Assembly: GCA_963692905.1 (NCBI GenBank)
Contig: OY843583.1
Location: forward strand, 21,703-85,702
Direction of reading: 5' to 3'
DNA length: 64,000 nucleotides
Origin: Spirochaetia bacterium
GTDB taxonomy: Bacteria; Spirochaetota; Spirochaetia; G963692905
Position 1 is the stretch's first letter. Each line of letters starts with the position of its first letter. This document shows positions 34,537 through 34,604 of the stretch, one piece after another. A program made the position numbers and the translations under genes. Below the pieces are notes generated by a model. It made no database searches. It worked only from the letters and a program-made list of their open reading frames with translations, and was not told the DNA's origin.

Positions 34537-34604
34537 CTCTCTCTCTCTCTCTCTCTCTCTCTCTCTCTCTCTCTCTCTCTCTCTCTCTCTCTCTCTCTCT
34601 CTCT
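34537..34604. repeat. Perfect (CT)34 dinucleotide microsatellite, 68 bp, lying 66-133 nt upstream of the paralog-1 start codon.
   Basis: Seen directly in the sequence. The homologous position upstream of the 35124-35816 paralog has only (TC)4-5. Confidence 0.95.

Follow-up and report, generated by a model that had tools for sequence, protein, structure and literature searches.

A perfect (AG)34 tract in the 5' leader of a predicted spirochete lipoprotein gene as a candidate translational phase-variation switch

The window, by which we mean the whole stretch of 64,000 nucleotides that was analysed (contig OY843583.1 of a Spirochaetia bacterium), contains four consecutive minus-strand genes at 33476-38110, all with lipoprotein-type signal peptides. 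Two of the products are propellers that are paralogs of each other, one is an RCC1-repeat protein, and the remaining one, of 162 aa, has LATC and a long basic extension at its N-terminus; each of the four genes has terminator or promoter-like signals of its own. Spirochete-type flagellar genes are present in the window as well as at the related loci. The gene studied here is the one at 33476-34471, which is annotated with a length of 331 aa and encodes a hydrophobic core (ALMVLVALVV) followed by the lipobox LVAC, with the cysteine at residue 22 of the annotated ORF. In the family alignment the L, A and C of the lipobox are invariant or near-invariant, and the P that follows is near-invariant. 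The product is a predicted lipoprotein, and it is presumably exposed at the surface.

The AlphaFold model of the protein reaches a mean pLDDT of 80.3 (>90 across the repeats), and Foldseek matches it to NHL, Pizza and PknD propellers (E 1e-9 to 1e-7, TM 0.43-0.50). At the level of fold only, the mature part is predicted to be an NHL/PknD-sensor-like beta-propeller. Searches of the lipoprotein against Pfam returned marginal DUF4394 and WYL matches only, and NCBIfam returned no family. Positions of all elements of the locus are collected in Table 1. Because a terminator-like hairpin closes the upstream RCC1 gene, the tract-bearing gene needs a promoter of its own; the candidate listed in the table was missed by the promoter scan, which accepts only T as the sixth base of the -10 element.

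Table 1. Elements of the tract-bearing locus and its surroundings, in coordinates of the window.
Feature	Position	Strand	Remark
Degenerate copy of the 5' module before the RCC1-repeat lipoprotein gene 35124-35816	35817..35900	-	No leader ATG; (AG)4-5 only; own SD and ATG
Intrinsic-terminator-like hairpin ending the upstream RCC1 gene	34986..35008	-	
Candidate promoter TTGCCA-N17-TATACA	34810..34838	-	Inferred by reading the sequence
Shine-Dalgarno (SD) sequence AAGGAGG	34696..34702	-	Spacer of 9 nt to the leader ATG
Proposed true start codon (ATG) of the lipoprotein precursor	34684..34686	-	In the assembled state, start of a 50-aa uORF
Pre-tract leader codons, encoding ILHNPISFLLGENERVKERLSTRKTLQ	34605..34683	-	Alternative in-frame GTG at 34636-34638, preceded by AGGAG
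Perfect (AG)34 tract, (CT)34 on the + strand	34537..34604	-	68 bp
TAA met by the leader frame at n mod 3 = 1, including the assembled n = 34	34534..34536	-	
TAA met by the leader frame at n mod 3 = 2	34524..34526	-	
Post-tract leader, free of stops in the frame of the lipoprotein ORF (…VSSLNTCQRENHSSSHSPLKGR)	34472..34533	-	Source of the signal peptide's basic residues KGR (n-region)
Second short run, (AG)4, in the post-tract leader	34508-34515	-	
Annotated ATG of the 331-aa ORF	34469..34471	-	GGGGAGG abutting, zero spacer
Signal-peptide h-region and lipobox (…ALMVLVALVVLVAC)	34406..34468	-	Cys22 codon at 34406-34408
Mature lipoprotein: Cys-rich N-terminal module and predicted NHL/PknD-like beta-propeller	33476..34405	-	ORF intact as far as the conserved …ALRYQ
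Terminator-like hairpin at the 3' end of the gene	33401..33426	-	T-run on the minus strand

The preliminary description of this DNA had reported a perfect (CT)34 microsatellite, placed 66-133 nt upstream of the annotated ATG 34471. Both statements are correct: the raw sequence contains the uninterrupted tract, Tandem Repeats Finder returns it with period 2, 34.0 copies, 100% matches and zero indels, and the coordinates give the same distance to the start codon. As the gene lies on the minus strand, the tract reads (AG)34 in the orientation of the gene. It is the only dinucleotide tract of more than 5 units in the 64 kb window, the next longest being six (CT)5/(TC)5 runs. Matches to a (CT)10 pattern occur in the window only inside the (CT)34 tract, against an expectation of 0.00 in 100 dinucleotide-preserving shuffles. 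With 34 perfect units the repeat is well above the length (roughly 6-8 uninterrupted units) from which frequent slippage is expected. An ORF of 138 aa on the + strand (34278-34694, …LSLSLS…) was rejected as an antisense artefact of the repeat.

Several other duplicated or repeated elements were observed in the window. A hexanucleotide repeat (TGGGGA/GGGATG, about 4 copies) at 37307-37332 encodes a PSPSPSP linker directly after the lipobox of the 466-aa paralog 35989-37389; a change in the number of its units would keep the frame, and would thus lead to variation in linker length and not to on/off switching. At 54225-54449, between the minus-strand genes 52617-54149 and 54777-55964, there is an intergenic perfect tandem duplication with a unit of 111 bp (2.0 copies, 100% identity), for which a sensitive Rfam scan gave chance-level matches only. 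It could be a very recent event or an assembly artefact. The genes 60052-61116 and 61433-62560 are tandem paralogs with near-identical 5' ends (…LHTIKLCY…MKFLRY…), and look like another locally duplicated family of secreted proteins.

The gene next to the tract-bearing one, 35124-35816, had been described as its paralog, with only a short repeat at the homologous position. The region upstream of 35124-35816 is indeed homologous and carries a short run only, (AG)4-5. The gene itself encodes an RCC1-repeat protein, and its mature part has no significant similarity to the product of the tract gene (BLASTP E = 0.94); what the two have in common is the 5' module and the type of signal peptide only. 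The neighbour that is a true paralog is 35989-37389 (46% identity). The earlier conclusion that the tract arose by expansion in one copy has to be abandoned as well, given that 9-27 units are present in similarly built leaders of a related genome. Over the first codons of the leader an AT-rich block (ATATTACATAAT) resembles a -10 box, and in the RCC1 copy, which lacks the leader ATG, this block may act as one.

Read from the ATG at 34686, the leader frame encodes MILHNPISFLLGENERVKERLSTRKTLQ, then (Arg-Glu)17 from the tract and then the stop codon TAA at 34536-34534, in total 50 aa. The tract is situated 82 nt downstream of this ATG, with its AAGGAGG-N9 ribosome binding site, and at the level of the sequence it separates a start codon from the functional part of the protein. 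The two start positions 34686 and 34471 are 215 nt apart, or 2 mod 3. When the length of the tract was varied in silico, n = 30, 33, 36 and 39 each yielded one continuous ORF of 400-406 aa (402-404 aa for 33 or 36 units), whereas lengths not divisible by 3 yielded a peptide of 46-56 aa that ends at a TAA 0 or 4 codons past the tract. The unit is thus not a multiple of 3, and a single frame (n mod 3 = 0, the ON state) is full-length while the others stop early.

The annotated ATG 34471 is probably a poor independent start, since GGGGAGG abuts it without a spacer and the site is predicted to be paired. In the predicted RNA fold GGGGAGGAUG, the sequence around this ATG, is mostly paired (P(unpaired) about 0.18). 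Moreover, the basic residues KGR are part of the signal peptide only if translation starts upstream of 34471, and a signal peptide started at 34471 carries no positive charge.

Within the leader at 34472-34683 we also observed an internal direct duplication (KERLSTRKTLQ-RE… and RVSSLNTCQ-RE…), of which each copy ends in CAGAGAG. The long tract is expanded at copy 1, and the short (AG)4 is left at copy 2. Paralogs such as P0023 and P0031 have a single copy, which suggests a deletion or duplication between the two AG runs of the leader.

The search for family members gave 91 database matches, 42 of which are located on one contig of 1,881,732 bp that also holds the identical protein. Tract lengths of the paralogs in this source genome were deduced from protein sequences only. 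About 21 of the 42 contig members are annotated with an in-frame N-terminal extension of the leader type, and about 11 with truncated signal peptides that lack a basic n-region, as is the case for the tract gene; P0002, P0003, P0004, P0006, P0008, P0010, P0017, P0025, P0026 and P0052 belong to this second group. The N-terminus MILHNPISFLLGE, shared with the tract gene, is annotated on paralogs P0005, P0009, P0012 and P0023, and the annotated starts of P0013 and P0027 are the equivalent MKERLSTRK. The annotated N-terminus of P0009 reads MILHNPISFLLGEKETASALKTCQRERERERVSSLKTCQRENHVSPHSPLKGRVLWGTLG…LVAC, and that of P0090 contains …ENERVKERLSTRKNASERERVSSLNTCQRENHGSSHSPLKGRVLWGTLG….

The predicted ON form of the tract gene has an N-terminus that is 80-85% identical to, and collinear with, the annotated long forms P0090, P0009, P0005, P0012 and P0023. 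The difference between them is essentially the length of (RE)n, which ranges from 0 to about 4.5 among the paralogs of the source genome. At the codon equivalent to 34471, P0027 has Thr (KGRTLLG) and P0089 has Ala (KGRALLS), so translation of these two must start upstream. P0090, a Ca-binding protein (PF00353), has a different mature part behind the leader.

Similar leaders are found in a closer relative, for which the hifiasm contigs of ENA assembly ERZ19489113 were used. Seven of its genes combine SD-N7-ATG, leader, (AG)n and signal peptide, with n = 9, 10, 13, 16, 17, 20 and 27; two of them are ON (P0048 and P0056) and five are OFF. The shared design starts with promoter-like elements (TTGACT-N17-TATAAT or TTGCAA-N17-TATACT), followed after ~22-25 nt by the SD, which is AAGGAG(G)/AAAGGAG and sits 7 nt upstream of the ATG in all seven. 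Past the ATG come an AT-rich leader of ~18 codons, (AG)n, …LNPSQR…, basic residues, the hydrophobic core and the lipobox. In one of the seven genes TTGACT-N17-TATAAT sits ~25 nt upstream of the SD, and the leader ATG would therefore be transcribed. The two L012 genes have zero ATG, GTG or TTG codons between the AG tract and the hydrophobic core, so that here the tract is unavoidably coding. The lack of such codons was noted for P0056 and also for P0055, which has a short AG run only. An FGE-sulfatase-domain gene on L014 of the same assembly is also found behind the leader.

The design was tested by a forecast made before the DNA in question was read. From the truncated N-termini of P0045 (MGVALVALLAAC) and P0062 (MAACPAAGG) we expected an out-of-frame leader and tract upstream of each, and both were found, with n = 16 and 27. 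In the 409 kb scanned, all eight (AG)n tracts of at least 6 units are located in such leaders and none elsewhere. Repeat numbers among the homologous leaders thus comprise 9, 10, 13, 16, 17, 20, 27 and 34, with ON and OFF states mixed. Four of the five OFF genes of the relative, and every OFF gene with a propeller domain, have an ORF that runs intact as far as the conserved C-terminus (…LRYQ/LRYR), and none of 5000 shuffled segments of 996 nt was free of stop codons. These two observations argue against long-dead pseudogenes.

At about 16190-16200 of L014 we noted a T8 run in the lipobox-coding region of the FGE-sulfatase-domain gene, by which the lipobox is out of frame; T7 would restore …AVFLAAC. 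This run is potentially a second slippage site, a homopolymer consensus error or a mark of a pseudogene.

A more distant Leptospiria MAG (OZ241995.1 / CBDBES010000002.1), the sole match when the genome collection was scanned, serves only as a negative control: it has no tracts in 227 kb, and its signal peptide is of the conventional short type. Loci L001-L010 of this MAG hold the propeller family with a different conserved 5' module, consisting of a promoter-like block AAAAAGCTTGA(T/C)T…TATATCTATA and a signal peptide that starts with M(K)MNVVIEMMRSKGG…. It appears, therefore, that the switch cassette and the mature domains evolve as separable modules. Scans of metagenome DNA gave zero matches with the leader pattern of the window and one match, to an unrelated sequence, with that of the relatives. 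A protein search with the leader peptide gave no match, even to the proteins that contain it, probably owing to low complexity or the word index.

On the basis of these results we consider it likely that (AG)34, situated in the translated N-terminal leader of a lipoprotein precursor, acts as a frameshift switch via slipped-strand mispairing. Ribosomes would start at ATG 34686, or possibly at the in-frame GTG 34638, translate about 28 leader codons and then read the tract as (Arg-Glu)n. With n a multiple of 3, reading would continue in frame via …VSSLNTCQRENHSSSHSPLKGR into the hydrophobic core and the LVAC lipobox, giving the precursor of 400-406 aa; signal peptidase II would presumably remove the leader. 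As this leader would be lost together with the signal peptide, the mature protein would be the same at every tract length. With n not divisible by 3, as in the assembly, TAA would be reached 0 to 4 codons past the tract, and the gene would be OFF or at most leaky until the loss of one unit or the gain of two turned it ON again. The exact number of AG units in a long-read consensus could err by one unit, upon which the ON/OFF state given here would change. We infer that the leader is translated in vivo and that tract length changes within populations. A predicted extension of 70-95 residues ahead of a lipoprotein hydrophobic core is unusual, and counts against a coding leader. The proposal of the preliminary description that the tract is a phase-variation switch in front of a predicted lipoprotein gene (lipobox LVAC, predicted beta-propeller as mature part) is nonetheless supported. 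The tract is a strong candidate for such a switch, and more specifically a well-supported candidate contingency locus by translational frameshift, phase-OFF in the assembly.

The mechanism that had been proposed for the switch is not supported. There the tract was placed between the likely promoter and the ATG or within the 5' UTR. In a non-coding model of this kind, with the tract promoter-proximal or in the 5' UTR, its length would tune transcription (through spacing, topology or H-DNA formed by the homopurine-homopyrimidine mirror repeat) or translation initiation at ATG 34471. The annotated ORF does begin downstream of the tract, most paralogs retain an ATG or GTG at the 34471 position (where low-level independent initiation may occur), and the homologous region of the RCC1 gene, having no leader ATG, is non-coding. 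Furthermore, triplex formation is possible in principle for a polypurine tract of 68 bp. Against this, 68 bp is too long for a -35/-10 spacer and the scan shows no sigma-70-like hexamers on either side of the tract, for which reasons a promoter-spacer switch was rejected. A switch based on UTR RNA structure was likewise discarded, as predicted folding (MFE of -66.4 kcal/mol) and accessibility of the annotated start stay constant for n = 20-36; in the tract region Rfam finds no cis-regulatory RNA even at E up to 1. An untranslated leader is probably wrong too, considering that the tract lies inside an SD-ATG ORF that paralogs read into the signal peptide, that relatives without an internal start show the homologous tract to be coding, and that the SD at ATG 34471 has no spacer. 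We thus found the tract neither between -35 and -10 elements nor upstream of or inside a leader that reads as untranslated. The tract may have a residual UTR role, and as a whole this non-coding model seems unlikely.

It might also be argued that a selfish or neutral microsatellite has permanently killed one member of a family of ~40 copies, without any useful switching. The family is indeed highly redundant, six of the eight tract-bearing genes are OFF and the L014 gene of the relative has a second frame disruption at T8. Yet the OFF genes keep ORFs of ~1 kb intact to the conserved C-terminus, the tracts are confined to one defined position of a conserved leader, their perfect and uninterrupted state suggests ongoing slippage, and the ON fraction (two of eight) is near the one third expected for a freely switching dinucleotide tract; we regard such a degenerative expansion as improbable. 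A regulatory uORF, in which a stop set by the tract would tune re-initiation or mRNA stability and give a graded output, has in its favour that some relatives' lipoproteins possess their own ATG and basic n-region (MRRL…) downstream of the leader, with the OFF-frame uORF stopping 3-58 nt past the tract. For these MRR…-start relatives it is possible, but for the tract gene it is unlikely: its uORF ends 63 nt short of ATG 34471, where the SD spacing is unusable, a separate start is missing altogether in several family members, and the ON frames form one uninterrupted ORF, annotated by gene callers as a single protein. Overall we give this explanation very little weight. An artefact of assembly or sequencing, for instance a low-complexity consensus error, is scarcely credible. 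GA/CT dinucleotide repeats are hard for some long-read chemistries and the exact number of units is uncertain; on the other hand, tracts at the homologous position recur at seven loci of an independent assembly, shorter (RE)n blocks are present in many paralogs of the same genome, and the flanks are unique sequence within the 1.88 Mb contig.

Returning to the frameshift switch in the translated leader, a wider reading may be put forward tentatively, as a real possibility that we do not yet favour. Promoter, SD-ATG, leader, (AG)n and signal peptide would together constitute a portable switch cassette that has been recombined in front of dozens of lipoprotein genes whose mature parts come from three or more unrelated families (NHL-like propellers, a PF00353 protein that binds Ca and a protein with an FGE-sulfatase domain), with a decayed copy on the RCC1-repeat gene. 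The result would be a combinatorial phasome of ~20-30 surface proteins, each switching independently, in a small (1.9 Mb), probably host-associated spirochete of the Leptospiria class. If true, this would be the first SSR phasome described in that class, with dinucleotide tracts that are unusually long for bacteria.

SSR translational phase variation is known mainly from Helicobacter, Neisseria, Haemophilus, Campylobacter and mycoplasmas. The kind of switch is therefore well known in bacteria, and what is new here is the spirochete lineage and the gene family; our literature search found no paper on this lineage or on its switch system. If switching is confirmed, this type of variation would extend to an uncultured spirochete lineage, and a large repertoire of independently switchable lipoproteins would be a signature of changing host or phage pressure. 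There is also a consequence for annotation: where, in these genomes, a family member has a truncated-looking signal peptide or lacks a basic n-region, the probable explanation is a phase-OFF gene with a wrongly called start and not a different protein.

Repeat switches of the type first proposed for this locus are represented by H. influenzae hifA/B, with (TA)n between -35 and -10, M. catarrhalis uspA2, with (AGAT)n in the 5' UTR, and N. meningitidis nadA, where (TAAA)n is a promoter or 5'-UTR repeat switch. As here, a simple repeat precedes the annotated start of a gene for a surface protein. In these systems, however, the repeat is non-coding and acts on transcription, whereas in our case the tract follows an SD-ATG, is represented by codons in paralogs, has no flanking hexamers and leaves the predicted RNA structure insensitive to its length. 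Closer in kind are the Neisseria opa genes, with (CTCTT)n in the region coding for the signal peptide. They too make up a multigene family for surface proteins, every copy with a coding repeat of its own ahead of the mature part; the mature sequence is unaltered and the copies switch independently. The opa repeat differs in that its unit is a pentanucleotide, in that it codes for part of the hydrophobic core, and in belonging to OMPs instead of lipoproteins.

The nearest spirochete examples are the tpr genes of Treponema pallidum, in which the number of CT units, (CT)3/4, determines whether TprA is full-length or truncated, and transcriptional phase variation results from poly-G tracts in the promoters of tprE/G/J and tprF/I (PMC3656149). 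The tprA tract has only 3-4 units, is internal (nt 706-711), varies between strains and is no evident hypermutable tract, and the poly-G tracts act in promoters; a shared leader module is absent. The design also works like that of Helicobacter pylori, where sabA, oipA (hopH), sabB, babB and hopZ have CT repeats in the 5' coding region (PMC5371856). The dinucleotide is the same (CT/AG, depending on the strand), it lies in the 5' coding part of a paralogous family of surface proteins, and the frame is set ON or OFF via slipped-strand mispairing (PMC5371856). Switching in H. pylori has been demonstrated by experiment; at the spirochete locus it is predicted from the sequence. The H. pylori tracts are also much shorter and are situated in the signal-peptide-coding region of beta-barrel OMPs; in the spirochete lipoprotein genes the repeat occupies a dedicated leader upstream of the basic n-region of the signal peptide, and reaches up to 34 units.
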